IMG/VR virus record: IMGVR_UViG_2526164599_000006
Length of the DNA stretch: 51,662 nt
Direction: 5' to 3' (one strand)
From: a virus
Lineage: Duplodnaviria > Heunggongvirae > Uroviricota > Caudoviricetes
Numbering within the stretch: the first letter of the stretch is position 1; every line of letters begins with the position of its first letter. Both the position numbers and the translations under genes were made by a program. Shown one piece after another: positions 1 to 51,662 of the stretch. The notes under the pieces were generated by a model that did no database searches, had not been told where the DNA came from, and worked only from the letters and a program-made list of their open reading frames with translations.

Positions 1-1131
1 TCAAATGACCAGTTTTTTCCATTCCTTACCGCGTGCGTCGTTGTAAATATCGGTCATTTTTTGATTCGAATGGCCCAGCAAAATTTTGGTATCAACCCCC
101 TGCTCTCTGAACAATCGCTCTGATAAAGATCTCTGCTCATGGAAAGAGGGAGGGGTGCCATTAGCACGCCAGTTGTAATCCACAGAATCCCGGGCTTTTT
201 TAAATGCAACGGTTAATGTTGCTGGCTTAACCATCCCGCCGCGCTTAGCTGTCCCTTTCGCGTGATGGTGGTGCAATAGCCACGGACTAAGAACGCAATC
301 GCGGCAGGATGACACCACATCATCCAGGGTGAGATTTAATTTATCGCAACGCAGAGCCAGAGGGATGGCAATCCGGGTTCCTGTTTTTTGCTGTTCGACA
401 TGAAGATAACCATCCCGGATATCCGAAAATTGCATTTTGAAAATATCTGAAAGGCGCTGGCCTGTCATCAGTGCCAGCAGCATACCGCGCTGTAAAAAGT
501 AACCATCCTTTTCCGCTGCGTTATAAATCATCATCCACTCATCAAAAGTCAGTCGCTGTCTTGATATCCGCACCTGCGGTTTTTTTGCCGATTCTGCAGG
601 GTTAAAGCCTGGCGGGACATCGCCCGTTTGCTGAGCTTCCCGGAAAACATCGATCAGTACTTTCCTGAAAATTTGTCCCATTCTGTTATGTCCTCTGGCC
701 TTGTACTCTTCCAGTACTGATACCACATCTTTTACGGTTATGGCATCTAACGGTCTGGTGCCAAAACGTTCATCAAATACCCTGAGAGGGGCCGCTTTCT
801 GTTTCAGCGTGTTGAGTTTGATCTCGCCGTTTTCATATCTTTCCTGTTGAATTTTTCTGTAATTATTCAGAAAAATGGTAACGGTTGATGAACCGCCGGT
901 ATCACTAATAATTTTCTCCTGCAGACTGAGCATTTGTTCCATTTGCTGCCGGGCAAGACGGCTGTTCGCTTCTGCTGCAATAGTTTCTGCCAGTTTCTGG
1001 TCAATACTGCCGAGACCGTGATTTTTGCCTGTTATGGGATGCCTGTAACGCCAGTAAACTTTGTTATTTCTTTTGTCAAAATACGGAGATAATCCCGGAA
1101 CATCGGTTTTATATTTTCGCGGGCGCGCCAT
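1..1131 (-). CDS. int: phage integrase, tyrosine recombinase family
   Basis: 376-aa ORF; C-terminal region (HHHHAKGTAKRG...LLGHSNQKMTDIYNDARGK) has the layout of lambda-type integrase catalytic domain; sits at prophage end next to an excisionase-like gene. Confidence 0.9.
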   Translation of the reverse strand: MARPRKYKTDVPGLSPYFDKRNNKVYWRYRHPITGKNHGLGSIDQKLAETIAAEANSRLARQQMEQMLSLQEKIISDTGGSSTVTIFLNNYRKIQQERYENGEIKLNTLKQKAAPLRVFDERFGTRPLDAITVKDVVSVLEEYKARGHNRMGQIFRKVLIDVFREAQQTGDVPPGFNPAESAKKPQVRISRQRLTFDEWMMIYNAAEKDGYFLQRGMLLALMTGQRLSDIFKMQFSDIRDGYLHVEQQKTGTRIAIPLALRCDKLNLTLDDVVSSCRDCVLSPWLLHHHHAKGTAKRGGMVKPATLTVAFKKARDSVDYNWRANGTPPSFHEQRSLSERLFREQGVDTKILLGHSNQKMTDIYNDARGKEWKKLVI

Positions 1132-1357
1132 CTTCCAGTATCCTCTTCAAAGCAGGGTGATCTGTGGCGATCACCTCCGGCTTGTTTACCATTCCGACAA
1201 AGCGAGCTTGCGGATCCACTCGCCAGCGTCTTCCAACTTTTTTGGGGAGAGGAAATATCATTCCGGCTTTAGCGTATTTACTTAACGTACTCGGAGTAGG
1301 GACCGGTTCACTGAATTCCTCTTTTGCCCACTCAGTGAGCAGAATAAGTCTTGCCAT
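1109..1357 (-). CDS. xis: excisionase-like small DNA-binding protein
   Basis: 82-aa ORF overlapping int start; basic, winged-helix-like sequence (TLSKYAKAGMIFPLPKKVGRRWRV) typical of Xis/AlpA-type proteins. Confidence 0.7.
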   Translation of the reverse strand: MARLILLTEWAKEEFSEPVPTPSTLSKYAKAGMIFPLPKKVGRRWRVDPQARFVGMVNKPEVIATDHPALKRILEDGAPAKI

Positions 1358-1421
1358 GAGCGTCGTTCGCTAATCATGGTCGCCGCCACTATAGCTGGTG
1401 GGCAACGACCGGGGTTGAACA

Positions 1422-3893
1422 TTAAAAATCAGCCTGATTCGGGATCAGTTTTTGCCAGATAGCTGAAACGTATTTTGCCTGGTAACGGGCATCATCCAGC
1501 GCATTGTGGCGCTCACCTTCGAATGGGATAGCAGTTCTGGCATCGAAGTCTACGGCTTTCCCCAGCTCAACGATTGTGCGTACATCGCGATCGTTGCAGT
1601 AGCGCCACGGGCAGGGGATACCCTGTCGTTCGTATGAACGGCGCAAAATCGTGTTGTCGAAGTTGGCCCCATTACCCCAGACCTGAACAAAAAACTCACC
1701 GGAGTTTTCGTCGATAAATTCCCGCAATTGCAGTAGTGCATCATCTAACGGGATTTCATCGGTCATAATGGCAGACTGCGCTTCACGTGATTGCTTCAGC
1801 CACCATTTAATGACGTCACGATCAATGACTCCGCCAGCAGTATCCAGATCGATGGTCTTGCTAAATTCTGGTCCCATATCTCCGGTTTGCGGATCGAAAA
1901 ATATTGCGCCTATTGAGATAATCGGGGCATCGGGATTTTTTCCCATGGTTTCAAGGTCGATCATTAGATGGTCACACGTCCTGCTGGTGGATGTGATAAC
2001 GTGATGACCGTTCATCGTAATTAAGGGATCTGCCGTCTCGCCAGTTTCACTATCGCTGGCGTGATCCTGAGCGCTACCAGCATTCTCCTTGTGTGGATGT
2101 TCAGCGCCTTCCATTTCCTTCGGATCATTTTCCTGAACTTCAACCTGATTCTCTTCATCGAATGTTTCCTGGTATGTTGCGTCACCCATCACCGCGCCAC
2201 AATCAGGGCAGTTGCCGCCACCGCTTTGACCGCAGGCGGTGCAGACTTTTTCCGGTTCCTGTTGCGCTACTGGCTCAGGTTGTTTCGTTTCTGGCTCGTT
2301 TTGTTGCGTATTTGGGCTGTTTTGTTCCGCTTTCTGGTCGTTCTGTTCCGATTCTTGCTGGTTCTGGTTTACAGAATCGCGGGTTTCAATCCCCTTTACC
2401 CATTTCGGATCATTCGGGTCGCTAATCCCTGCAACAAATTCTCCGCGAGAGGCAGCAAGCAACTTATCGGCGTCAGGCTGGCTGATATTGGCTGCCTGCA
2501 TAATTTTGTTTACTTCGTCAGCGGTAACTTTTACCGGCTCTGGTTGTGCGGTCGTGTCAGATGCACCAGTATTTTGTTGTGAACCTGAGTACGTGCCGTT
2601 TTTACGTGCGAAGTATTCCTCTTTTGTGATTTCCGTAGCTCCCAAGGCTAGTGCTTTTTCCAGACCAGAAAGTTTGTTTGCGCGACCGTATTTTTCGCCA
2701 TCCTTGTCGGTGAAGAGGAAGTAGAACGGCCCCTCACGCTCTACAGATGGTTCGACTTCCACTTTGCATTCGGTTTTTTCGTTGCCCGGAATTGCCGTTT
2801 CCACTGCATCAGTTTCTGGTACTGGCGACGAGAGAGTATCAGTTGCGCTCTGATTTCTTCCTTCATCTTCAAACACGCCCTTTGTAGTCAGGTATTCAGT
2901 AATGTATTTGTTCAGTGCCACAGGGTCTTTGTGAATGTCGATCGGACGTTCACGGACAAGGCCAAAAATAGTCTGGCGGTCGTAGCGAAGGGCATCAGGC
3001 TGTTTGCGCATTGATGCCGAGATACGCTTCCAGTCTTCGCGGTCGTTGTCGATAACTTCATTTTTTGCCCAGCGATGGATGCTGCCGTCAATGTTTCCGG
3101 CATCCACATCACCAGGCCAGAGAGCGTAGGCCAGTTCGTCATCCAGTGTTTTCCATGTCTGCTTGTATTCGCGATGAATGGCAGCAATGACCGGGCTGAT
3201 TTTTCCTGTTGAATTTTCACTGTGCTGTTGATTGGTTCTGGCGCGGGCGAGATCAACAACAGACGTGTATTTTCCGGTTTCCTTGCGTTCACCTTCGCGA
3301 CGTTTTTTCCAGATGCGCATCTCTGCCTGAATTTCGGGCCATTTGGCACCAGGCTTACATTTATGCTTAACCCACCCGATGGCATGCAGCTTAAGCTCCG
3401 GATACATGGCGTTAACTTCTGGCATTTTCATCAACGCTTCAACGATATGTCCGTCGAATGTTGCCATGTCTTCCTGCAACAATTCCTGTGCGCTAATAAC
3501 CATATCAACGGTGATGTTTTCACATGTGTCGAACTTAACCATGACAGCGTTCTGTACTTCAGGGGCCAGCTTGTCAAAAGTGACGTTCATCGGATCGGAT
3601 TCAGTCTCAACCGGGACAAAGGAAGCAGACTCCTCATCCCAGCGGTTTTCCTGCATATATTCAGCATCCCAGGAATCGAGGGCAGGGCGGGGTATACCGG
3701 GTTTATCCTCGCAGACAAGAAATTTATAAGCGCAGTCCTGAGCAGCCGGATAATGCTCCAGGAATTGCCAGTGAAATTTTGCGCGGGCGCGACGTTCATC
3801 ACCGGCTTCAATGGCAGTGGCTACAGCGACGGCACCTTCTTCCTTTATTGCCTGTTCGTCCGGAATGGCGGCGCAAATAAAGACTTTACTCAT
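1422..3893 (-). CDS. putative exonuclease, C-terminal DEDD-type 3'-5' exonuclease domain (class often annotated exodeoxyribonuclease VIII in prophages)
   Basis: 823-aa ORF; C-terminus has DnaQ-like motifs (DLETMG..., FDNTILRR..., HNALDDARY); central low-complexity Q/E/N-rich linker and a CxxC...CxxC zinc-ribbon. Confidence 0.65.
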   Translation of the reverse strand: MSKVFICAAIPDEQAIKEEGAVAVATAIEAGDERRARAKFHWQFLEHYPAAQDCAYKFLVCEDKPGIPRPALDSWDAEYMQENRWDEESASFVPVETESDPMNVTFDKLAPEVQNAVMVKFDTCENITVDMVISAQELLQEDMATFDGHIVEALMKMPEVNAMYPELKLHAIGWVKHKCKPGAKWPEIQAEMRIWKKRREGERKETGKYTSVVDLARARTNQQHSENSTGKISPVIAAIHREYKQTWKTLDDELAYALWPGDVDAGNIDGSIHRWAKNEVIDNDREDWKRISASMRKQPDALRYDRQTIFGLVRERPIDIHKDPVALNKYITEYLTTKGVFEDEGRNQSATDTLSSPVPETDAVETAIPGNEKTECKVEVEPSVEREGPFYFLFTDKDGEKYGRANKLSGLEKALALGATEITKEEYFARKNGTYSGSQQNTGASDTTAQPEPVKVTADEVNKIMQAANISQPDADKLLAASRGEFVAGISDPNDPKWVKGIETRDSVNQNQQESEQNDQKAEQNSPNTQQNEPETKQPEPVAQQEPEKVCTACGQSGGGNCPDCGAVMGDATYQETFDEENQVEVQENDPKEMEGAEHPHKENAGSAQDHASDSETGETADPLITMNGHHVITSTSRTCDHLMIDLETMGKNPDAPIISIGAIFFDPQTGDMGPEFSKTIDLDTAGGVIDRDVIKWWLKQSREAQSAIMTDEIPLDDALLQLREFIDENSGEFFVQVWGNGANFDNTILRRSYERQGIPCPWRYCNDRDVRTIVELGKAVDFDARTAIPFEGERHNALDDARYQAKYVSAIWQKLIPNQADF

Positions 3894-16850: not shown

Positions 16851-17225
16851 ATGCGTATAGAGTTTGTTTTGCCTTACCCGCCGACGGTGAACACCTACTG
16901 GCGACGTCGTGGCAGCACATATTTTGTATCAAAAGCCGGTGAGCGTTATCGCCGGGCTGTGGCGCTTATTGTTCGCCAGCAGCGGCTGAAATTAAGCCTG
17001 TCCGGAAGGCTGGCGATAAAGATTATTGCCGAGCCACCGGATAAGCGCCGCCGTGACCTGGACAATATTCTGAAAGCGCCGCTGGATGCGCTGACGCATG
17101 CGGGGTTGCTAATGGACGATGAGCAGTTTGATGAAATCAATATCGTTCGTGCTCAGCCAGTATCTGGTGGACGTCTGGGGGTGAAGATTTACCCCATAAT
17201 GCTTGCAGGGCAGGTCAAAAAATGA
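16851..17225 (+). CDS. rusA: Holliday junction resolvase RusA
   Basis: 124-aa ORF with RusA hallmarks (DxDN core RRRDLDNILKAPLDALT). Confidence 0.85.
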   Translation: MRIEFVLPYPPTVNTYWRRRGSTYFVSKAGERYRRAVALIVRQQRLKLSLSGRLAIKIIAEPPDKRRRDLDNILKAPLDALTHAGLLMDDEQFDEINIVRAQPVSGGRLGVKIYPIMLAGQVKK

Positions 17226-18043
17226 AACTGGAAGATTTACCGAAATACTACTCCCCAAAATCCCCCGGCCTGACTGATGCATCGGCCTCAACGTCGAAAG
17301 ATGCGCTGAGTATCACTGATGTGATGGCCGCGCAGGGCATGACACAGAATCGGGCTGAGATGGGGTTTTCTGCGTTCCTTGGGAAAATGGGCATTAGTAT
17401 GAATGACAGAGAGCGGGCAACAGAATTGCTGACAGAATATGCACTCAGTCGGTGTGATCGCGTGGCGGCGTTAAGAAAACTCCCGGCAGAAATAAAACCG
17501 GTAGTGATGCGCATTATGGCTTCGTACGCTTTTGAGGATTATGCCCGTAGCGCAGCGAGTAAAAAGCAGTGCCCTTGTTGCTATGGGGAAAAATTTATTG
17601 AAAGCGTAGTTTTTACAAACAAGGTCCAGTATCCGGATGGTAAGCCGCCGGTATGGGCAAAGTGTACGAAAGGTGTGTATCCGTCTTACTGGGAAGAATG
17701 GAAAAAAGTCAGGGAGGTGGTAAAAGTTGCCTGTCCGGAGTGTGGCGGAAAGGGTGAGGTTTCCACCGCCTGTAAGGATTGCCGTGGGCGTGGTGTCGCC
17801 ATTCATCGTGAAGAGTCGGTAAAACGTGGTATGCCTGTTATCAGAGACTGCCAGCGTTGTGGTGGTCGTGGCTGTGAAAGACTACCATCAACGGAGGCAT
17901 TTAATGCCATATGCGAAGTGACGAGTGCTATCACGCTTGATACGTGGAAAAAATCAGTGAAACGCTTTTACGATACGTTGGTGGTTCGGTTTGACATTGA
18001 AGAGGCATGGGCGGAGCGGCAGTTAAAGAGGGTAACGCGATAG
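17222..18043 (+). CDS. late-gene antitermination protein Q (QuuQ-like)
   Basis: 273-aa ORF with multiple CxxC zinc-finger motifs; located after rusA and immediately before a promoter/terminator pair and the lysis genes. Confidence 0.65.
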   Translation: MKLEDLPKYYSPKSPGLTDASASTSKDALSITDVMAAQGMTQNRAEMGFSAFLGKMGISMNDRERATELLTEYALSRCDRVAALRKLPAEIKPVVMRIMASYAFEDYARSAASKKQCPCCYGEKFIESVVFTNKVQYPDGKPPVWAKCTKGVYPSYWEEWKKVREVVKVACPECGGKGEVSTACKDCRGRGVAIHREESVKRGMPVIRDCQRCGGRGCERLPSTEAFNAICEVTSAITLDTWKKSVKRFYDTLVVRFDIEEAWAERQLKRVTR

Positions 18044-18048
18044 TGTTG

Positions 18049-18076
18049 TTGATTTTTCCCGAATCTGTGGTAAATT
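18049..18076 (+). promoter_or_regulatory. candidate late promoter pR'
   Basis: TTGATT (18049..18054), 16-bp spacer, extended -10 TGgTAAATT (18068..18076), directly downstream of the Q gene. Confidence 0.4.
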
Positions 18077-18125
18077 TGCTCTAACGATGGGCGTTTTATG
18101 CCTGACGTTAGAAGATTTTTTACAC

Positions 18126-18147
18126 CCCGCCGCCTGGCGGGTTTTTT
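18126..18147 (+). terminator. candidate tR'-like intrinsic terminator
   Basis: Hairpin CCCGCC-GCCT-GGCGGG followed by TTTTTT, about 50 nt downstream of candidate pR'. Confidence 0.45.
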
Positions 18148-18269
18148 ATGACTGAAATCGCGTCAGTACAGTAAACGCGCTGGTGGCGGTGAATACCTGT
18201 CTTTCAGCTTGCTGGCTTTTTCGACAAGAGTTATTGGTGTGTCACGTTAACCGGAAAAGGGAAAAAGAC

Positions 18270-18467
18270 ATGCTAAAACAGCAGGATATGACAGAAACCG
18301 CCAGAGTAGTGTTTAATGAATTAAGCGTTACCGAACCGGCGACAGTCGGGGAGATAGCGCAGAATACTTACCTTTCACGCGAACGCTGCCAGTTAATACT
18401 GGCCCAGCTGGTTATGGCGGGTCTGGCAGACTATCAGTTCGGTTGTTACAGACGCCTTCCGCAGTGA
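18270..18467 (+). CDS. hypothetical small protein
   Basis: 65-aa product from internal Met (MLKQQDMTE...) of the 94-aa ORF; stop codon lies inside a terminator hairpin. Confidence 0.35.
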   Translation: MLKQQDMTETARVVFNELSVTEPATVGEIAQNTYLSRERCQLILAQLVMAGLADYQFGCYRRLPQ

Positions 18468-18477
18468 AGGCTTTTTT
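18454..18477 (+). terminator. intrinsic terminator-like hairpin
   Basis: GCCTTC-CGCAGT-GAAGGC followed by TTTTTTATT. Confidence 0.4.
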
Positions 18478-18617
18478 ATTTGTGGTAAATGGGCGGCTGG
18501 TGGGTGTTAGGGGCACCCACCAGCCATCTGCTCATGCGTTGGGTTCACAAGCAAACCTCAGGCCCACTGCTTTGCGCAAAAGCAGAATGAGCCTATCAGA
18601 GACAGGCTTAATGATCC

Positions 18618-19667
18618 ATGCTTAATACTGTAAAAATATCCAGTTGTGAGTTAATCAACGCCGACTGCCTGGAATTTATCCGGTCGTTACCCGAAAATTC
18701 TGTTGACCTGATAGTCACGGACCCGCCGTACTTTAAAGTGAAGCCTGAGGGCTGGGATAACCAGTGGAAGGGCGACGATGATTACCTGAAGTGGCTGGAC
18801 CAGTGTCTGGCGCAGTTCTGGCGGGTGCTGAAACCTGCCGGAAGTCTTTACCTGTTCTGTGGTCATCGCCTGGCATCTGATATCGAAATCATGATGCGTG
18901 AACGCTTCAGTGTGCTGAACCATATTATCTGGGCGAAGCCGTCCGGACGCTGGAACGGATGCAACAAGGAAAGCCTGCGGGCGTATTTCCCCGCCACAGA
19001 GCGCATTCTGTTCGCGGAACATTATCAGGGGCCGTATCGTCCGAAAGATGCCGGGTATGCGGCGAAGGGCAGTGCACTGAAACAGCATGTGATGGCCCCG
19101 CTGATTTCTTACTTTCGTGATGCGCGCGTGGCCCTGGGGATAACGGCAAAACAGATTGCAGATGCCACAGGAAAGAAAAACATGGTGTCGCACTGGTTCA
19201 GTGCCAGTCAGTGGCAGCTACCGAACGAAAGCGATTATCTGAAATTACAGTCGCTGTTTGCCCGGGTGGCAGAAGAGAAACATCAGCGCGGTGAACTGGA
19301 AAAGCCCCACCACCAGCTGGTGGATACGTATACGTCACTGAACCGGCAGTATGTGGAGCTGCAGAGTGAATATAAGCATCTGCGGCGGTATTTTGGTGTG
19401 ACGGCGCAGGTGCCGTACACGGATGTGTGGACACATAAACCGGTGCAGTTCTATCCCGGGAAACATCCGTGCGAAAAACCGGCAGAAATGCTGCAGCAGA
19501 TAATCAGCGCAAGCAGTCGTCCGGGTGACCTGGTTGCAGATTTTTTTATGGGCTCAGGTTCAACGGTAAAAGCTGCACTGGCGCTCGGGCGTCGTGCGAT
19601 TGGCGTTGAACTGGAGACCGGACGTTTTGAGCAGACAGTCAGGGAAGTTCAGGATTTAATCGTTTGA
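18618..19667 (+). CDS. DNA N6-adenine methyltransferase (orphan, phage-encoded)
   Basis: 349-aa ORF with DPPY catalytic motif (LIVTDPPYF) near the N-terminus and SAM-binding motif (DFFMGSGST) near the C-terminus. Confidence 0.8.
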   Translation: MLNTVKISSCELINADCLEFIRSLPENSVDLIVTDPPYFKVKPEGWDNQWKGDDDYLKWLDQCLAQFWRVLKPAGSLYLFCGHRLASDIEIMMRERFSVLNHIIWAKPSGRWNGCNKESLRAYFPATERILFAEHYQGPYRPKDAGYAAKGSALKQHVMAPLISYFRDARVALGITAKQIADATGKKNMVSHWFSASQWQLPNESDYLKLQSLFARVAEEKHQRGELEKPHHQLVDTYTSLNRQYVELQSEYKHLRRYFGVTAQVPYTDVWTHKPVQFYPGKHPCEKPAEMLQQIISASSRPGDLVADFFMGSGSTVKAALALGRRAIGVELETGRFEQTVREVQDLIV

Positions 19668-19716
19668 AACGGATGAGATTGCAGAATTAATTACGCACCA
19701 TTATTATTCTGCTTCC

Positions 19717-19792
19717 GGCCCTTTAGCTCAGTGGTGAGAGCGAGCGACTCATAATCGCCAGGTCGCTGGTTCAAATCCAGCAAGGGCCACCA
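19717..19792 (+). tRNA. ileZ: tRNA with CAU anticodon, tRNA-Ile2 (lysidine)-like
   Basis: 76-nt cloverleaf GGCCCTT...AAGGGCCACCA; anticodon loop CTCATAA; close to remembered E. coli ileX. Confidence 0.8.
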
Positions 19793-19892
19793 TCACAAAC
19801 CGCCATTAGCTTATCAGGAAGAGCAGACGACACGATAACAGGGTTGTTGGTGCGGGGGCGGGTCCCCGATGGCGGTCCATTATCGGTATTCA

Positions 19893-19969
19893 GCGTTGTT
19901 AGCTCAGCCGGACAGAGCAATTGCCTTCTAAGCAATCGGTCACTGGTTCGAATCCAGTACAGCGCGCCA
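19893..19969 (+). tRNA. argO: tRNA-Arg (anticodon UCU)
   Basis: 77-nt cloverleaf GCGTTGT...ACAGCGCGCCA; anticodon loop CTTCTAA; TTCGAATCC T-loop. Confidence 0.8.
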
Positions 19970-20076
19970 TATTCATTCTTCCAGATTCCTTTCGGCAGAG
20001 CCTTATACTGAAATATACCTGGCTCAGGATATTGTTGAAAATATTATATGTTTGTCAAAAATAAAAGTTCTGTTAA

Positions 20077-20433
20077 GTGTTGATTGAGTGTTTGTTATAC
20101 GGTCTAATGGTTTTTTCAGCATTAAATATTTATCATTCATATGGTGTGGGTAGAGTGAATATTGATGAGGCGTCGGGGTGTTTCATCCTTAGGCAGCGTA
20201 TTGATATAGTCAATGCAGAACGAGCAAAGGCCTTCAGCCGTTTGACAGTTTTGTTCTGTACTCCTGATCGTCTTTCGGGAAGAGACGTTATTATTCTGAA
20301 TAGTGATGCTATACAGAGGGTTTGCGATGAGTTCATGGTGGCTAATTCAGAATTATTTGCTCTTGTTCAGGAGTACAACAGAATAGCCAGGACCTGTGGT
20401 ATGGATGAACTTCGGATTACTCATCTGGGGTAG
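20077..20433 (+). CDS. hypothetical protein in AT-rich cargo DNA
   Basis: 118-aa ORF (track start is GTG); no clear RBS; no recognisable family. Confidence 0.25.
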   Translation: MLIECLLYGLMVFSALNIYHSYGVGRVNIDEASGCFILRQRIDIVNAERAKAFSRLTVLFCTPDRLSGRDVIILNSDAIQRVCDEFMVANSELFALVQEYNRIARTCGMDELRITHLG

Positions 20434-20889
20434 ATACATATCTGGATTATCACCGGTTACGGTAAAAAGTGATTGCTTACTGTTTTTGTGAATGGCATTG
20501 CAGCAGCCGGATAATGTCAGTGCTGGCTGACGGTGTGCTGGTGGCGGGTGTGGTGGTTGCTGCTTTCCCGTTGCTGAAAAAGAAAACGCCAGACTGTTAG
20601 CCGGGTATCAGTTAGCGGGAGAAATTTTTAAATACTTCACAATTCAGGCGGTTGACTGTTGTCTGGTTTGCGGGGAGTTTGTTAAAAGAAACTGGCATGG
20701 TGAATCCCCCTGTGCGGAGGGGCAATCAGCGAGTAGGTATATGGGATAATCGCGGATTCAGGTGCTGGTACTGAATTCACCGGGAGGCACCCGGCACCAT
20801 GCAATGGCACATAGCGCCACTCTCCAGCCCCTCTCCGGAGGGGCTGTTTATATTGATTTTGTCAGATGTGAGTAAACTCCTTATGGACT

Positions 20890-21216
20890 TTATTGTTTTA
20901 GCCCATAAGGACATATTTGCAGAGTGCAACGGTTATTAAAGCATTCATTCAATACGTTATCTGTATTTGTAGGGCATTCCTGGCTGTTTTTGATTAAATT
21001 CCAGAATGTTTTATTGAATGGTACTACGTTGTAAATGGTTACAGGTAGCACTTTGTTATTGAGCATGATGCCTGTGTGAGTCAGTGTAAATATACTTTCA
21101 GGAGGTAAGAAAGCATCCGATTGATACCAGATTATTAATTTTATTTTACTCCATATGACTGAAAAAGATATTCCGCATGATGGCTGGATAACTGTATCAA
21201 TCACAATCCACTTCAT
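20890..21216 (-). CDS. hypothetical Cys-rich protein in AT-rich cargo DNA
   Basis: 108-aa ORF with RBS AGGA 6 nt upstream of ATG; C-terminus has five cysteines ([26 protein letters not shown]). Confidence 0.3.
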
Positions 21217-21476
21217 TTAGTTTCCTTGTTTATGCCTTGCTGGTGATGTTCTGAAAAGTATAAATGATATTTTTGATTGTAAACCATAGAGCAGAATTAT
21301 TTTTCTGATGTTGTTTATTGTTTATTTAAATGCAGGGTGGTTTATATCTCGTCTTGTAGTTTATCCATGCATATCTGCTTGATGATGAGGTTTTTAATTA
21401 AGGTATGGTTTTGTGTTTTTTCTGTATTACATGTCAGGTATTTTAAAGAATCATTTTTCAGATGGTGGAAAGAACC

Positions 21477-23330
21477 ATGGCATTTAAACACTATGATGTT
21501 GTCAGGGCGGCGTCGCCGTCAGATCTTGCGGAAAAGCTGACACATAAACTGAAAGAGGGCTGGCAGCCGTTTGGTAGTCCGGTGGCCATAACCCCTTATA
21601 CCCTGATGCAGGCGATTGCAGCAGAAGGTGATGTGGTCGTCAGTGGTGCAACTGAGCCGGAGTGGTACTACGTCATCGTACTGGCCGGGCAGTCCAATGC
21701 CATGGCTTACGGTGAAGGGCTTCCGCTTCCGGATTCATACGATGCGCCCCATCCGCGCATTAAGCAACTGGCCCGTCGTAACACAGTGACTCCCGGTGGT
21801 GAAGTATGCGTATTTAACGACATCATTCCTGCTGACCATTGTCTGCATGATGTTCAGGATATGAGTACGATTAACCATCCCCGGGCTGACCTGAGCAAAG
21901 GGCAGTACGGCTGTGTCGGACAGGGCTTACATATTGCCAAAAAACTGCTTCCGTATATCCCTAATAACGCGGGGATCCTGCTGGTACCATGCTGTCGTGG
22001 TGGTTCGGCATTCACCCAGGGCACGGAGGGGACATTCAGCGAGTCCACGGGGGCCAGTCAGGATTCGGCTCGCTGGGGAGTGGGTAAGCCGTTATATCAG
22101 GATCTGCTTTTCCGCACGAAGGCAGCATTGCAGAAAAACCCGAAAAACGTTTTGCTGGCGATATGCTGGATGCAGGGGGAATTCGATATGACGAATGCCA
22201 GTTACGCCCAGCAGCCAGCAGCATTTCTTGCAATGGTACAGCAGTTCCGTGCTGACCTTGCCGGGCTGGCGGCGCAGTGTCACGGTGGAAGTCCGGCATC
22301 AGTCCCCTGGATTTGTGGCGACACGACATACGCGTGGAAACAAGAACACGGTACGCAATATGAAGTGGTATATGGTGCATATAAAGGTAAAGAATCCCAG
22401 CAGATTTATTTTGTTCCCTTTATGACCGATGGTAGCGGAGTTAATACACCGACAAACAACCCGTCAGAAGATCCTGATATTGTCGGGTCTGGTTATTACG
22501 GTTCGGCATCCCGAACGAACAAAAACTGGGTATCATCAAATCGCCCGACGCATTTCAGCTCATGGGCGCGTCGTGGCATTATTCCCGATCGTATGGCAAC
22601 CGCTATTCTGAACGCAGCCGGGCGCACCTCAGCTTTCATCAGTGGTAAGGCACCGGAAATCAAACCCTCGCCCGGCGGCAACACGCCATCGGGGCCGTCT
22701 GAAGATGCATCCGTACGCACAATCTCCCTGTTGCCGACAGCCGGAGAGGCTGCTGCGCAGGGCTGGACCATTAAGGACGGCGGAATTCAGTTGTCGGGTG
22801 GTGTATTTAAGATCGCCAAGCAGAGCAATAAAACCTGGTCCCTGATGCATCCGGTGGATGACGCAGTCTCCCTGCTGACACGGGGTGGCAGACTGAGCTG
22901 TAAGTTTCGACTGTCAGGCGCACTGACCAACAACCAGTTCGGCCTGGGAATTTATCTGTATACCGATGTAGCGTTACCTGACGTCGTGGCGATGACCGGG
23001 ACTGGTAACCCGTTCCTGATGTCGTTCTTCACCCAGACCACAGACGGCAAACTGAATCTGATGCATCACAAGAAAGCAGGAAACACAAAGTTGGGCGAGT
23101 TCGGGAATTACAGTAATGACTGGCAGACGCTGGAACTGGTGTTCACCGCCGGCAGTGCCACGGTTACTCCGAAACTGAATGGAGTGGCTGGCCCGGCATT
23201 CCAGGTCATAAAAGACAGTCTGACACTGGGGCTGAATGCGCTGACGCTGACGGATATTACCAAAAATGCAGCGTATGGCGTTGAGATAGAAAGTCTGGTG
23301 CTGGAGATAAATGCACCGGCATCATCATAA
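21477..23330 (+). CDS. nanS-p: NanS-p-like sialate O-acetylesterase (DUF1737 N-terminus plus SASA domain)
   Basis: ORF with GQSN motif (VLAGQSNAMAYG) and DUF1737-like N-terminus (MAFKHYDVVRAASP); track start 21462, ATG 21477 preferred. Confidence 0.75.
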   Translation: MAFKHYDVVRAASPSDLAEKLTHKLKEGWQPFGSPVAITPYTLMQAIAAEGDVVVSGATEPEWYYVIVLAGQSNAMAYGEGLPLPDSYDAPHPRIKQLARRNTVTPGGEVCVFNDIIPADHCLHDVQDMSTINHPRADLSKGQYGCVGQGLHIAKKLLPYIPNNAGILLVPCCRGGSAFTQGTEGTFSESTGASQDSARWGVGKPLYQDLLFRTKAALQKNPKNVLLAICWMQGEFDMTNASYAQQPAAFLAMVQQFRADLAGLAAQCHGGSPASVPWICGDTTYAWKQEHGTQYEVVYGAYKGKESQQIYFVPFMTDGSGVNTPTNNPSEDPDIVGSGYYGSASRTNKNWVSSNRPTHFSSWARRGIIPDRMATAILNAAGRTSAFISGKAPEIKPSPGGNTPSGPSEDASVRTISLLPTAGEAAAQGWTIKDGGIQLSGGVFKIAKQSNKTWSLMHPVDDAVSLLTRGGRLSCKFRLSGALTNNQFGLGIYLYTDVALPDVVAMTGTGNPFLMSFFTQTTDGKLNLMHHKKAGNTKLGEFGNYSNDWQTLELVFTAGSATVTPKLNGVAGPAFQVIKDSLTLGLNALTLTDITKNAAYGVEIESLVLEINAPASS

Positions 23331-45941: not shown

Positions 45942-45952
45942 GTGGGGTGAAT

Positions 45953-48900
45953 ATGGCAGTAAAGATTTCAGGTGTACTGAAAGACGGCACAGGAAAACCG
46001 GTACAGAACTGCACAATCCAGCTGAAAGCAAAACGTAACAGCACCACGGTGGTGGTGAACACGCTGGCCTCAGAAAATCCGGATGAAGCCGGGCGTTACA
46101 GCATGGACGTTGAGTACGGTCAGTACAGCGTTATTCTGTTGGTGGAAGGGTTCCCGCCGTCACATGTCGGGACCATCACCGTGTATGAAGATTCCCGACC
46201 CGGTACGCTGAATGATTTTCTCGGTGCCATGACGGAGGATGATGCCCGTCCGGAGGCTCTGCGCCGTTTTGAACTGATGGTGGAAGAGGTGGCGCGTAAC
46301 GCGTCCGCGGTGGCACAGAACACGGCAGCCGCGAAGAAGTCAGCCGGCGATGCCGGCACATCTGCCCGTGAGGCGGCAACCCATGCGACTGATGCTGCAG
46401 GCTCAGCACGCGCAGCCAGCACGTCAGCCGGACAGGCCGCTTCGTCGGCTCAGTCAGCGTCTTCCAGCGCAGGAGCGGCATCAACAAAGGCCAGTGAAGC
46501 ATCGAAAAGTGCTGCTGCTGCAGAGTCCTCAAAAAGCGCGGCAGCTACCAGTGCCAGTGCCGCGAAAACGTCAGAAACGAATGCGGCAGCGTCACAACAA
46601 TCAGCAGCCACTTCTGCATCCACCGCGACCACGAAAGCGTCAGAAGCAGCCACTTCAGCACGGGATGCGTCGGCTTCAAAAGAGGCGGCAAAATCATCAG
46701 AAACGAACGCAGCCTCGAGCGCCAGCAGCGCAGCTTCCTCGGCAACGGCGGCAGCAAATTCTGCGAAGGCGGCAAAAACGTCCGAGACGAACGCCAGGTC
46801 TTCTGAAACGGCAGCGGGACAGAGCGCCTCAGCTGCGGCAGACTCAAAAACAGCGGCTGCATTATCTGCCAGTGCCGCGTCAACAAGTGCCGGGCAGGCC
46901 TCAGCCAGTGCCACCGCCGCCGGAAAATCGGCAGAAAGTGCTGCATCGTCTGCTTCAACAGCCACAACGAAGGCTGGCGAAGCCGCTGTACAGGCCAGCG
47001 CAGCAGCGAGGTCTGCTTCCGCAGCGAAGACATCCGAGACGAACGCGAAAGCGTCGGAAACCAGCGCAGAATCCTCAAAAACGGCTGCCGCATCGTCCGC
47101 CAGTTCGGCGGCGTCATCGGCATCATCTGCGTCTGCTTCAAAAGATGAGGCGACCAGACAGGCGTCAGCAGCAAAGGGCAGCGCCACGACGGCATCCACG
47201 AAGGCGACAGAGGCAGCTGGCAGTGCGACGGCGGCAGCTCAGAGCAAAAGTACGGCGGAATCCGCGGCAACGCGCGCTGAGACAGCGGCAAAACGGGCAG
47301 AGGATATTGCATCCGCCGTGGCGCTTGAGGATGCGAGCACGACGAAAAAGGGGATAGTACAGCTCAGCAGTGCGACTAACAGCACTTCCGAGTCACTGGC
47401 GGCAACGCCAAAAGCCGTTAAGGCCGCGTATGAGCTGGCTAACGGGAAATACACCGCACAGGATGCAACGACAGCACAGAAAGGGATAGTTCAGCTTAGC
47501 AACGCGACCAACAGCACATCTGAAATGCTGGCGGCAACGCCAAAGTCGGTAAAGGCAGCCTATGACCTTGCTAACGGGAAATATACTGCTCAGGACGCTA
47601 CGACAGCACAAAAAGGAATTGTCCAGCTCAGTAGTGCAACCAACAGCACATCTGAAATGCTGGCGGCAACGCCAAAGTCGGTAAAGGCAGCCTATGACCT
47701 TGCTAACGGGAAATATACTGCTCAGGACGCTACGACAGCACAAAAAGGAATTGTCCAGCTCAGTAGTGCAACCAACAGCGCATCTGAAACGCTTGCCGCG
47801 ACACCGAAAGCAGTGAAAGCAGCTAATGATAATGCGAATGGTCGGGTACCTTCTGCCCGTAAGGTGAATGGTAAGGCGCTTTCAGCGGATATAACACTGA
47901 CGCCGAAAGATATTGGTACGCTTAACTCAACAACAATGTCATTCAGCGGTGGTGCTGGTTGGTTCAAATTAGCAACGGTAACCATGCCACAGGCGAGTTC
48001 TGTTGTTTCAATTACGTTGATTGGTGGTGCGGGATTTAACGTGGGGTCACCTCAACAGGCAGGTATATCTGAACTTGTTTTGCGTGCAGGTAATGGTAAT
48101 CCGAAGGGGATTACTGGTGCTTTATGGCAGCGCACATCGACAGGGTTTACAAATTTTGCCTGGGTCAATACATCTGGTGATACTTACGATATTTACGTTG
48201 CAATCGGAAATTATGCGACTGGTGTAAATATTCAATGGGATTATACCAGTAATGCCAGCGTGACGATTCATACGTCACCAGCATATTCTGCTAATAAGCC
48301 GGAAGGGTTAACGGACGGTACAGTTTATTCACTCTATACGCCATCAGAGCAGTTTTATCCGCCTGGCGCACCAATCCCGTGGCCATCAGATACCGTTCCG
48401 TCTGGCTATGCCCTGATGCAGGGGCAGACTTTTGACAAATCTGCATACCCGAAACTTGCAGCCGCTTATCCGTCAGGCGTGATCCCTGATATGCGTGGCT
48501 GGACGATTAAGGGCAAACCCGCCAGTGGTCGTGCCGTATTGTCTCAGGAACAGGACGGCATTAAATCGCACACCCACAGCGCCAGCGCATCCAGTACGGA
48601 TTTGGGGACGAAAAACACATCGTCGTTTGATTACGGAACCAAATCCACGAATAACACCGGGGCGCATACGCACAGTCTGAGTGGCTCTACGGGGTCTGCC
48701 GGTGATCATACTCATGGTAATGGTATTCGTTGGCCAGGAGGCGGCGGTTCTGCGTTAGCATTTTATGATGGCGGTGGGTTCACTTATGTCCAGGATTCAC
48801 AGTATCAAGTAAGCCCGGGGACTTCTTCCCGTAGATCGTATTATCAACGTATTCAGACACAGTCAGCAGGTGCTCATACCCACTCGCTGTCTGGTACTGC

Positions 48901-49060
48901 AGCAAGTTCTGGCGCACATGCACATACTGTAGGTATTGGTGCGCATACGCACTCCGTTGCGATTGGTTCACATGGACACACCATCACCGTTAACGCTGCT
49001 GGTAACGCGGAAAACACCGTCAAAAACATCGCATTTAACTATATTGTGAGGCTTGCATAA
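45953..49060 (+). CDS. stf: side tail fibre protein Stf
   Basis: About 1035-aa product (track start GTG 45947); Ala/Ser-rich low-complexity region, four 44-aa tandem repeats, His-rich C-terminal region (HTHS repeats). Confidence 0.85.
47338..47850 (+). repeat. tandem 132-bp repeats (about 4 units) inside stf
   Basis: Near-identical units beginning at about 47338, 47470, 47602 and 47734, each encoding [18 protein letters not shown]...AYDLANG. Confidence 0.7.
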
Positions 49061-49644
49061 TGGCATTCAGAATGAGTGAACAAGCACGGACCATAAAAAT
49101 TTATAATCTGCTGGCCGGAACTAATGAATTTATTGGTGAAGGTGACGCATATATTCCGCCTCATACAGGTCTGCCAGCAAACAGTACCGATATTGCACCA
49201 CCAGATATTCCTGCTGGCTTTGTGGCTGTTTTCAACAGTGATGAGGCATCGTGGCATCTCGTTGAAGACCATCGGGGAAAAACGGTTTATGACGTAGCGT
49301 CAGGGGACGAGTTATTTATTTCTGAACTCGGTCCGTTACCGGAAAATGTTACCTGGTTATCGCCGGAAGGGGAGTTTCAGAAGTGGAACGGCACAGCCTG
49401 GGTGAAGGATACGGAAGCAGAAAAAATGTTCCGGATCCGGGAGGCGGAAGAAACAAAAAACAACCTGATGCAGGTAGCCAGTGAGCATATTGCGCCGCTT
49501 CAGGATGCTGCAGATCTGGAAATTGCAACGGAGGAAGAAACCTCATTGCTGGAAGCCTGGAAAAAGTATCGGGTGTTGCTGAACCGTGTTGATACATCAA
49601 CTGCACCTGATATTGAGTGGCCTACGAACCCTGTCAGGGAGTAA
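49060..49644 (+). CDS. tfa: tail fibre assembly protein Tfa
   Basis: 194-aa ORF overlapping stf stop; Tfa-like N- and C-termini. Confidence 0.85.
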
Positions 49645-49693
49645 TCATTGGGATTATGCCGCAGCACGTCTTAAGCAAGAACGTGCTGCGGTT
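49483..49693 (+). repeat. direct repeat copy 1 (tfa 3' end plus downstream hairpin)
   Basis: About 90 percent identical to 50532..50743; includes an 11-bp perfect-stem hairpin CCGCAGCACGT...ACGTGCTGCGG. Confidence 0.7.
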
Positions 49694-49698
49694 GGATG

Positions 49699-50367
49699 CT
49701 ATTTTTTCCCTGAAGCGGAAAACATTACTACAGTACCTTGAACCTTGGTTTTAACATTCTCGAAATGCTCTGAGAGTATATGTGTTAAGCCTTCTTCGGA
49801 ATCTTTTGTGTTTGAAAAGATGCCTTTCTGATTGTAAATGCGCATCAGTTTTTGACCGAAGCTATTGTGCACAACTCCATCGCCAAGAATTGTGGCTCCG
49901 TATAGAGTTCCATCGTCAGTTAAGGCCTGCGCCGCATTGCGTATTACACAGCTTTTTGTAGATATATTTCCAGGCAGGCAGTGAAGAAGGTAAAACATGG
50001 AAATGGAATCAAATTGACCATGTAACGCCGCGGGATAAGGTTCAAAAACATCATGGCTAATTTTATGTTTAATTTTTGATTCCCCAGCCCTTGTAGATGC
50101 CGCGTTCAGGCTAGCTTCGTTCAAATCCATTAAAGATATCAGACTACTCTCAGGTACGTGAGTAAGGTAAAACCCAGTTCCAACACCAATATCCAGATGG
50201 TTGTTACCTACATGTTCCAGAAAGTGTGGAAGAAGGTGTTCCTTTGTAGGACATCCCCATGCAAGCCGATTTGATACTCCCAAAACCCACCAGTCATAAA
50301 GCTTTAGGGTAAGTGGTGTGTAAATTTTAGCCCCATCATCTGTGTTTTTTTTCATTGATTTCACCAT
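49699..50367 (-). CDS. class I SAM-dependent methyltransferase (substrate unknown)
   Basis: 222-aa ORF with motif I LDIGVGTG; AT-rich DNA; opposite strand to late operon. Confidence 0.55.
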   Translation of the reverse strand: MVKSMKKNTDDGAKIYTPLTLKLYDWWVLGVSNRLAWGCPTKEHLLPHFLEHVGNNHLDIGVGTGFYLTHVPESSLISLMDLNEASLNAASTRAGESKIKHKISHDVFEPYPAALHGQFDSISMFYLLHCLPGNISTKSCVIRNAAQALTDDGTLYGATILGDGVVHNSFGQKLMRIYNQKGIFSNTKDSEEGLTHILSEHFENVKTKVQGTVVMFSASGKK

Positions 50368-50423
50368 GTTATAGTTTTATTTGTGAATTAAATCAATTAT
50401 GGCGATGAATTACAAGGGGTTAA

Positions 50424-50693
50424 ATGCTGCCGCAGCATAGCGATATTGAAATAGCCTGGTATGCTTCGATACAGCAGGAGCCGAATGGCTGGAAGACCGT
50501 CACCACACAGTTCTACATCCAGGAATTCAGTGAGTATATTGCGCCACTGCAGGATGCTGTAGATCTGGAAATCGCAACGGAGGAAGAAAGATCGTTGCTG
50601 GAGGCATGGAATAAATATCGGGTATTGTTGAATCGTGTTGATACATCAACTGCACCTGATATTGAGTGGCCTGCAAATCCTGTCAGGGAGTAA
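50424..50693 (+). pseudogene. tail fibre assembly gene fragment (duplicated tfa C-terminal region)
   Basis: 89-aa ORF whose C-terminal about 55 aa nearly match the Tfa C-terminus; N-terminal part unrelated. Confidence 0.5.
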
Positions 50694-50743
50694 TCATTGG
50701 GATTATGCCGCAGACACGTCGTATGCAGGAACGTGCTGCGGTT
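50532..50743 (+). repeat. direct repeat copy 2 (tfa 3' end plus downstream hairpin)
   Basis: Matches 49483..49693. Confidence 0.7.
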
Positions 50744-50807
50744 AGTTTGTGAGCTTTCGATAGTGGTTGTTATTTTTGCCCTTATTTGTTCCGGAGGCCA
50801 TGGTTCA

Positions 50808-50978
50808 ATGGTCCGTCTGCCCCCTGTGGTGATGTCAGCAAAATCAGCCACTGCGCGAACCACAATAGCCCGGGAAGATGCTGAAGATCACCAGGTAAAG
50901 CTGTCAGCGCAGAAACTGGAAGAACTGCTCGCATCAATGGTTAAGGATGAGGTTGATCGCAATGATGGGATTTATTGA
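50808..50978 (+). CDS. hypothetical small protein
   Basis: 56-aa product from internal Met (MVRLPPVVMSAKSATAR...) of the 93-aa ORF. Confidence 0.3.
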   Translation: MVRLPPVVMSAKSATARTTIAREDAEDHQVKLSAQKLEELLASMVKDEVDRNDGIY

Positions 50979-51072
50979 CGTCAGCGAGAGCAGAAGGAAG
51001 AACTGAATAACCTGAATGATTTACGCTCAATCAGAGCGATGGCGATTAGCGGCAATCACGCTCGATAAAATT

Positions 51073-51104: not shown

Positions 51105-51662
51105 TTAAAACCGCATCAACCTTTCCACCAATTGTTCTTTACGGGCAACGATCCACCCATGTTGCTCCAGATAAAATTTAAACCGTTCCAGCGTGCATAC
51201 CATCGCATCGGCGGGGACTTTTTCTGTGAACTCGACCTGACCGTGTTTATCGAAGTGGATCAGTAATGCGCATCCATTATTTGGGGCGGGGGAGTTTTGT
51301 GCTGCAGGAGGACGTTTGTGGAGTTCTTCTTCCATTGCGTTAAATTTTTCAATGTAAGCTTCTTTTAGTCTGGCTGCTTTTTTGCCAGTAAATCCCATTA
51401 CGAGGAACATGAAGCCGTCTTTTGTGATCAGGTAGCATCGTGATTCACGTTCTGCGCCGTTGCCAATTTCGACAGTCTGAACATCGGCCGAAAAGTTGGC
51501 TGATGTAAATTCGGGAGAGCAGTCGAGTGTGTCAATCTTAGCTAAAACGTGTTTATGTTGTTTATCGAAGTAGTCGGCAACAGCTTGAGAGGTGGTAACC
51601 AGGCGACCATCTTTGAAAAAGACTTTTGGTGACTCGTTAGAAAAAGTTATAGCTGTATTCAT
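51105..51662 (-). CDS. Rha-family phage regulatory protein (antirepressor-like)
   Basis: 185-aa ORF; N-terminus (VTTSQAVADYFDKQHKHVLAKI) typical of Rha/ORF6N; start codon at the window edge, so the true N-terminus could lie outside. Confidence 0.55.
   Translation of the reverse strand: MNTAITFSNESPKVFFKDGRLVTTSQAVADYFDKQHKHVLAKIDTLDCSPEFTSANFSADVQTVEIGNGAERESRCYLITKDGFMFLVMGFTGKKAARLKEAYIEKFNAMEEELHKRPPAAQNSPAPNNGCALLIHFDKHGQVEFTEKVPADAMVCTLERFKFYLEQHGWIVARKEQLVERLMRF

Follow-up and report, generated by a model that had tools for sequence, protein, structure and literature searches.

The ybcY-tfaX module of a lambdoid prophage: a predicted methyltransferase moron between two copies of a tfa 3' end

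Results

The minus-strand methyltransferase block behind the tail-fibre genes of the prophage analyzed here is the ybcY-tfaX module of DLP12-type Escherichia coli lambdoid prophages, which has already been catalogued and named. We favor reading it as a moron, that is, an accessory gene that would have a promoter of its own and occupies the non-essential stretch behind the tail-fibre genes, and estimate the probability of this reading as a whole at about 0.75. The gene would encode a small-molecule or lipid enzyme, the block would have originated by a crossover and would be lost by recombination between the repeats that flank it, and the equivalent of tfaX would be a relic. The locus is a real but ordinary case of phage mosaicism and is already known; its description is modestly refined here by the chimeric make-up of tfaX and by the deletions between the repeats.

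Layout of the tail-fibre locus

The window, meaning the whole stretch of 51,662 nucleotides that was analyzed, is a lambdoid prophage that runs from an integrase gene (1-1131, minus strand) to a terminal Rha-family regulator gene and is apparently complete. The identical DNA of 2017C-4173W12 shows the order J, lom, stf, tfa, methyltransferase, partial tfa, DUF4376 pseudogene, rha, and ash, beyond which lie an ompW fragment, yciE/F/G, and the trp operon. The methyltransferase block thus sits in the non-essential region directly 3' of the tail-fibre genes, and the locus is composed of the following parts.

49060-49644, plus strand: tfa, intact, for a tail-fibre assembly chaperone of 194 aa; its 58 final codons specify the conserved C-terminal domain and form repeat copy 1
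49468-49693, plus strand: direct repeat copy 1, made up of the codons for the Tfa C-terminal domain, the tfa stop codon, and a hairpin with a perfect 11-bp stem (about 49658-49690)
49694-50423, minus strand: AT-rich moron core, with the ybcY-type predicted class I SAM methyltransferase gene and the upstream spacer (50368-50423) that bears the candidate promoters
50371-50399, minus strand: candidate sigma-70-like promoter TTGATT-17-TATAAC, read from the sequence and predicted for ybcY in K-12 (PMC3946193)
50424-50693, plus strand: chimeric 89-aa open reading frame (ORF), the equivalent of tfaX, with about 36 codons from the 5' end of a phrog_3893 gene followed by Tfa codons 137-194
50517-50743, plus strand: direct repeat copy 2, in which the codons for the Tfa C-terminal domain and the stop codon precede a hairpin bulged by an extra A and a U-rich tail
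50790-51068, plus strand: DUF4376 or tail-fibre-related pseudogene fragment, from the PGAP annotation of the identical DNA and matches to phrog_7703 and phrog_1141

The tfa product matches Caudo_TAP of Pfam (1.3e-44, profile positions 1-130), and the identical protein (WP_000885577.1) is annotated both in 2017C-4173W12 and in EFF60, a strain whose prophage lacks the methyltransferase block. In such cassette-less prophages (EFF60, Evo1, PigCaeca_2, and others), the DUF4376 fragment is the native right-hand neighbor of tfa.

The direct repeat and its hairpins

A repeat search paired 49468-49664 with 50517-50713 at 89% identity, and 49665-49693 with 50715-50743. Taken as a single gapped alignment, the copies are 226 and 227 nt long and 88.5% identical, and both contain tfa codons 137-194 (58 codons), the stop codon, and a hairpin. 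A repeat of this kind cannot be due to chance. An earlier reading of this DNA from its letters only (the sequence-only reading) had described repeats on both sides of the minus-strand methyltransferase gene; these are real, although they start 15 nt upstream of where they had been placed (49468, not 49483). That reading had also given each copy a perfect 11-bp-stem hairpin. This holds for copy 1 (CCGCAGCACGT/ACGTGCTGCGG; MFE z = -4.0 on the plus strand) but not for copy 2, where an extra A bulges the stem (6+5 bp; z = -2.1). A terminator-like match was found in copy 2 at 50724-50740. The copy-1 hairpin, 5 nt past the methyltransferase stop codon, also folds stably on the minus strand (z = -4.5); no U-tract follows it there, so the hairpin does not explain how the methyltransferase transcript is terminated.

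A chimeric ORF and a proposed origin of the module

Only residues 31-86 of the 89-aa ORF match Caudo_TAP, at profile positions 75-130 of 131. Tfa proteins have a variable N-terminal domain that binds the fibre and a conserved, helical C-terminal domain (PMC9608196). The ORF has the second of these domains and lacks the whole of the first. Over its full length it corresponds to phrog_2341, and its residues 3-37 match phrog_3893. In a Citrobacter contig, the core (49687-50510) is present at 91.8% identity with no tfa repeat on either side, and the same ORF start runs on into a full 80-aa phrog_3893 protein (7.6e-38). Another full-length member of this family, gp29 of HK225, is encoded in the equivalent region of that phage. 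The N-terminal 36 or so codons of the ORF thus derive from the 5' end of this small b-region gene (phrog_3893). The phrog_3893 part and the full-length Citrobacter gene confirm the earlier proposal that the second tfa copy is fused to unrelated N-terminal sequence (50424-50693). At the base level, homology to the small gene gives way to homology to tfa within a CAGGxA microhomology near 50515-50525, and the left edge of the core coincides with a second microhomology, TGCGGT, where the hairpin ends. In phage Ayreon, a tfa 3' end and the hairpin are followed by no more than the 12 final codons of the methyltransferase gene, which lead into the start of the small gene (phrog_3893); the methyltransferase has undergone an internal deletion there.

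This anatomy suggests a donor phage with the order tfa, hairpin, methyltransferase (minus strand), and a small gene X (plus strand), and a second phage with the order tfa, hairpin, and DUF4376. An out-of-register illegitimate crossover at a short microhomology would have fused X, at codon ~36, to the second phage's tfa, at codon ~137. The product would be tfa, hairpin 1, methyltransferase, X' fused to the tfa C-terminal domain (X'::tfa), hairpin 2, and DUF4376'. The 226-nt direct repeat is best read as the scar that this single crossover between the two phages left, and it would afterwards have served for homologous deletion. The sequence-only reading had suggested a cassette acquired or exchanged by recombination between tfa copies. 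The repeats do not mark out the unit that first moved, however: in Citrobacter the core has no tfa repeat, and in phage ev243 the module has no intact tfa upstream.

Duplicated tfa or stf 3' ends are also a hallmark of invertible tail-fibre segments, and the locus might instead be an alternative host-range system, with a second functional chaperone or a switchable segment of the kind known from Mu (G), P1 (C), and e14 (P). In favor of this, the 89-aa ORF is in frame and preceded by a good Shine-Dalgarno sequence (AAGGGG), and it belongs to a recurrent family, PHROG 2341. However, the repeats are direct rather than inverted, neither an invertase ORF nor a second stf 3' end is found between tfa and the end of the prophage, and the fibre-binding domain is missing. 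The ORF itself comes in many lengths (48-108 aa); K-12 has a stop codon inside it, IS66 truncates it in O157, and UPEC 26-1 lacks it. We therefore give a host-range system almost no credence; to judge by these sequences, the ORF behaves as a decaying relic and not as a second chaperone. A Gin/Cin/Pin-type invertible segment in particular was rejected, given the direct repeats and the lack of an invertase among the ORFs from 49000 to the end of the window. A gix-like 26-mer gave no match, although this is a weak test. On the minus strand opposite the chimeric ORF, Pfam scans of the two longest open stretches gave no match, and the 'DinI family' pseudogene that PGAP annotates there in some genomes was dropped for this reason.

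Identity with the K-12 module and distribution

Positions 49206-50670 of the window align with tfaD'-ybcY-tfaX' of the K-12 prophage DLP12 as one collinear block of 1465 nt with 96.9% identity. The collinear order expected of an ortholog of the DLP12-type module (tfa 3' end, hairpin, ybcY on the minus strand, spacer, tfaX) was found at this high identity, and the orientation, the junctions, and the promoter hexamers in the spacer are shared as well. The two loci differ in their state of preservation: here, tfa and the methyltransferase gene are intact in an apparently complete prophage, whereas in K-12, tfaD is truncated, ybcY is frameshifted (a pseudogene), and tfaX has its internal stop.

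Methyltransferase DNA was detected in 3836 of 5426 complete E. coli genomes (71%). The left junction (tfa end, hairpin, and methyltransferase 3' end) was present in 3066 genomes and the right junction (spacer and chimeric ORF) in 3436, which points to one old event in which each joint arose once and was then inherited or spread. The block is not a recent or unusual insertion in this prophage but this widespread module, with the same two junctions. A full-length methyltransferase gene was found in 14 phage records, including ev243, 2G7b, and the PhiR series; active temperate phages are among its carriers. The surroundings of the block vary. In ev243, the methyltransferase gene is followed by a partial tfa, an alpha/beta hydrolase gene, ompT, and the integrase gene. 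In O157:H7, tfa is separated from the hairpin by a yciG/F/E-catalase-like block, and the partial tfa is cut short by IS66. UPEC 26-1 retains no more than stumps of the integrase gene and tfa, the intact methyltransferase gene, and ompT. As the repeat consists of the conserved C-terminal domain common to many tfa genes, the module would travel with tail-fibre modules and spread with them via homologous exchange. In the literature that we searched, ybcY is mentioned only in passing (lists of genes, a deletion, and a table of SELEX sites), and no functional study was found.

Probable loss of the block and recombination between the repeats

Six prophages (EFF60, Evo1, PigCaeca_2, 200177, 190693, and rl0044) have an empty site, at which tfa is followed directly by hairpin 2 and the DUF4376 fragment. 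The block is therefore present or absent between otherwise adjacent genes, as is expected of a moron. Most of the empty-site examples that were fetched are of the same prophage type and occupy the same ompW site. The Tfa protein of EFF60 is identical to the one here, and the sequence upstream is 98.8% identical. The view that the block is an add-on is upheld by this absence from same-site sister prophages with identical Tfa, and by its GC content, which differs from that of the flanks. A search with a synthetic deletion junction containing one repeat copy gave about 20 genome records that match over the full length; the raw count of 663 overstates the number, since a cassette-bearing locus attains 82% coverage from copy 2 and its flank alone.

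The two repeat copies differ at 26 sites, and all six empty-site alleles resemble copy 1 at their 5' end and copy 2, bulged hairpin included, at their 3' end. In EFF60, the switch falls after 49629, inside the last 35-nt identical block. That in rl0044 is clean and lies between 49584 and 49624, and 190693 switches nearly as rl0044 does, with one extra type-2 site. The three others (Evo1, PigCaeca_2, and 200177) are patchy mixes of type-1, type-2, and private states that a single switch does not describe. Copy 2 of K-12 is the converse, a 2-to-1 mosaic. The expectation that the duplicated tfa 3' ends recombine is borne out by these copy-1/copy-2 hybrids with their varied switch points and by the K-12 mosaic. 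These alleles are most simply read as products of repeated homologous recombination and gene conversion between the two repeat copies, by which the block is lost precisely: recombination between the copies would delete the block cleanly and leave one intact hybrid tfa. The empty-site alleles, above all the patchy ones, could in principle be ancestral alleles that recombined later instead of deletion products.

Carried further, the arrangement with the methyltransferase might be ancestral for the lineage, and the empty prophages might carry tfa alleles that never had it, with no repeat-mediated loss at all. The patchiness of half of the six alleles, which are not clean single-crossover products, would agree with this. 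Against it, EFF60 changes to copy-2 sequence exactly inside the last identical block behind an otherwise near-identical upstream region, rl0044 has a clean switch at a different place, and the X'::tfa joint shows the right copy to descend from a tfa whose immediate 3' neighbors were once hairpin 2 and DUF4376. We consider an ancestral arrangement unlikely, and deletion between the repeats remains our preferred explanation of the empty sites.

In a bolder version, the same recombination might turn the block into a mobile cassette that is targeted by homology and needs no integrase. A circle with one hybrid repeat would be freed by recombination between the copies, and a single RecA- or Red-mediated crossover could reinsert it behind any tfa that shares the domain, regenerating the repeats. 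The methyltransferase would then be a selectable lysogenic-conversion trait (e.g., quinone, lipid, or toxic-metabolite methylation). Such a trait would explain why the gene is retained in ~71% of E. coli genomes, even in prophage stumps; we nevertheless rate a mobile cassette of this kind as an outside chance.

The methyltransferase

The methyltransferase ORF (49699-50367, minus strand, 222 aa) matches Methyltransf_12 of Pfam (4e-9) and three related families above their cut-offs, in agreement with the class I SAM-dependent methyltransferase that the sequence-only reading had placed there. Of 24 aligned homologs, 23 begin at the residue matching M5, PHROG 2132 covers residues 5-222, and the -10 hexamer of TTGATT-17-TATAAC abuts the annotated ATG. 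The true start is therefore probably M5 (50355), which would give a protein of 218 aa. A family alignment of 25 sequences (56-90% identical) contains a GxGxG motif and an invariant acidic residue, D81, after beta-2; other invariant residues include C39, H57, H105, H129, and C130. An AF2 model, with a confident pLDDT of 89.8, is a soluble Rossmann fold with a single domain of 218 aa. Motif I, the acidic residue after beta-2, and the seven-stranded sheet fold that characterize class I (Rossmann-fold) SAM methyltransferases are thus all present. The values of dN/dS against the genes of Citrobacter, Salmonella, and Enterobacter range from 0.11 to 0.21, so that the gene is under purifying selection.

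Sequence profiles link the protein weakly to JHAMT (7e-6) and UbiG (1e-3), and NCBIfam gave sub-threshold matches solely to CpaM, RquA, and PmtA, with all equivalog scores far under the cut-offs. Methyltransferases of the UbiE/COQ5, UbiG, PmtA, and JHAMT types are set apart from it by these scores, by an identity of at most 21% to solved structures, and by the family-specific invariants C39, H57, H105, H129, and C130, to which no role is assigned. In Enterobacter and Salmonella, homologs with 56-68% identity stand alone on the chromosome. In the neighborhoods examined (Enterobacter, Salmonella, Yersinia, Aeromonas, and Pasteurellaceae), the homologs are solitary or in unrelated or mobile contexts with no conserved partner, so that gene neighborhood gives no functional clue. 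Within the main explanation, we lean, somewhat beyond even odds, toward a cytoplasmic small-molecule or lipid methyltransferase of the UbiE/COQ5-like type.

Orphan DNA methylases are frequent in phages, and the sequence-only reading had left the substrate open, DNA included; a DNA (or RNA) methyltransferase serving anti-restriction or epigenetic control would be an alternative. The protein has no (D/N/S)PP(Y/F) or PC/ENV motifs, its motif IV being LHCLPG, and it has no Pfam DNA-methylase match and no target-recognition domain in its single-domain fold. The prophage already has a genuine DNA methylase elsewhere, an N6_N4_Mtase at 18618-19667 (1.8e-44). Such a substrate is thus very unlikely, and an N6-adenine, N4-cytosine, or C5-cytosine DNA methyltransferase was rejected given its motifs, Pfam matches, and fold. 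Among the PADLOC defence-system models, only mad2 gave a match (E = 0.009), which is non-significant, and no stretch passed; a defence-system reading was dropped for lack of a significant match.

The enzyme might also serve the phage by modifying an envelope component, a receptor, or the tail-fibre protein, leading to superinfection exclusion or altered adsorption, as lom and cor, which occur at this position, would suggest by analogy. Yet the gene lies on the strand opposite to the late operon, its sequence has no signal peptide or membrane segment, and the modeled fold is soluble. The intact gene is also kept in remnants without tail genes, such as that of UPEC 26-1, and the unrelated contexts of its homologs include no conserved envelope partner. 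An envelope or tail role is accordingly improbable, and a cytoplasmic enzyme acting on a small molecule or lipid is the function that we retain.

Promoter and expression

Genomic SELEX in K-12 found an RpoD-holoenzyme site and H-NS binding in the ybcY/tfaX spacer, with TTGATT-17-TATAAC predicted for ybcY (PMC3946193). These hexamers are conserved here at 50399-50371. A second candidate, TTAACC-16-CATAAT, lies at 50423-50396 and comes from a consensus scan that yielded no more sites than shuffled sequence. Both candidate promoters are thus predictions, from consensus or SELEX, and the methyltransferase gene would be transcribed from this AT-rich, H-NS-bound spacer. The gene is antisense to the late operon, and we infer that it is expected to be expressed in the lysogen and not during virion assembly. 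The base composition of the core departs from that of the neighboring phage genes, as is expected of a moron. The DNA around the gene is AT-rich, as described earlier, but only modestly, with a GC content of 0.37-0.445 in the core versus 0.49-0.51 in tfa.

Comparison with known systems

Morons of lambdoid phages, such as lom and bor of lambda, follow the concept of Juhala and Hendrix. Like them, the block adds an extra gene between otherwise adjacent neighbors, with deviating composition and a predicted promoter of its own, beside a terminator hairpin and after the tail-fibre genes. Unlike them, it has on either side a 226-nt direct repeat of the 3' end of the preceding gene, which would provide a built-in route to precise loss.

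The lambdoid prophages of EHEC carry exchangeable effector loci downstream of their tail-fibre genes. The same slot gathers cargo here, as seen with the yciGFE/catalase-like block and IS66 in O157:H7 and with the alpha/beta hydrolase gene and ompT in ev243. The cargo of the present block differs in being a metabolic-type methyltransferase with no secretion signal and not a type III effector. The invertible segments (G of Mu with Gin, C of P1 with Cin, and P of e14 with Pin) likewise have duplicated 3' sequences of tail-fibre or chaperone genes at the tail-fibre locus. They differ from the present locus, which has direct repeats, no invertase, no alternative stf end, and a chimeric relic as its second copy.

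The locus can serve as a worked example of how lambdoid mosaics may be built, in that an illegitimate out-of-register join would create both a chimeric ORF and a direct repeat, and the repeat in turn would allow precise loss. The question of wider value is the substrate of the enzyme, which is highly conserved, under purifying selection, present in most E. coli genomes, and carried by active temperate phages; ybcY is pseudogenized in K-12, the laboratory strain in which its study would normally happen. The tfaX of K-12, for its part, is not simply a truncated tfa but the start of a phrog_3893 gene fused to the Tfa C-terminal domain.

Cargo at the same slot in other genomes

The slot that holds the methyltransferase gene carries further genes in other genomes. 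In E. coli O157:H7 FRIK2455 (L003), a yciG-yciF-yciE-like block and a manganese catalase gene (1295-3508) lie between tfa and the hairpin/methyltransferase, and the partial tfa is interrupted by an IS66-family element. Because these yci- and catalase-like genes resemble the chromosomal neighbors of the ompW attachment site, there are hints that the block was picked up by aberrant excision. Behind its methyltransferase gene and partial tfa, the isolated temperate phage ev243 (L020, 4276-9760) carries an alpha/beta hydrolase gene, ompT, and the integrase gene. Given this order, the ompT region of E. coli DLP12 looks like the cargo region of an ev243-type phage.

Right end of the prophage

Just 3' of the second repeat copy is a further piece of tail-fiber-module debris:

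50790-51068, DUF4376/tail-fiber-related pseudogene fragment (phrog_7703, phrog_1141)

At the right end itself lies a rha-ash pair, which spans 51105-51662 and extends beyond the window (10105-10934 of L001, the locus that continues past its end). The EFF60 prophage, cassette-less and otherwise very similar, lacks this pair; rha-ash is a second presence/absence difference from that prophage, adjoining the attachment site.

Doubtful annotations over the methyltransferase block

Two RefSeq annotations concern this block:

~50442-50521, minus strand, equivalent of a "DinI family" pseudogene called in E. coli AR216.2b
49617-49754, plus strand, 45-aa ORF overlapping the tfa stop codon, the hairpin, and the methyltransferase 3' end

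The first is annotated as a frameshifted pseudogene (L032, 3573-3652) and lies on the strand opposite the beginning of the chimeric ORF; it looks doubtful, as neither of the two longest open stretches on the window's minus strand returned a match when scanned against Pfam. RefSeq genomes label the 45-aa ORF "hypothetical protein" or, in some cases, even "nucleocapsid protein"; it is probably not a real gene.

Other features of the prophage

The side tail-fiber gene stf (45947-49060) contains three tandem coding repeats of 132 nt each (47328-47841), which are 75-83% identical and encode a repeated motif of ~44 aa. The late-regulatory region (17222-23330) has a Stx-phage-like organization from which the toxin genes are absent. 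Its genes are, in order:

17222-18043, antiterminator-like ORF
18618-19667, N6_N4 DNA methylase
19717-19792, tRNA gene with anticodon CAT (annotated as tRNA-Ile in a related genome)
19893-19969, tRNA gene Arg-TCT
21462-23330, SASA-family esterase
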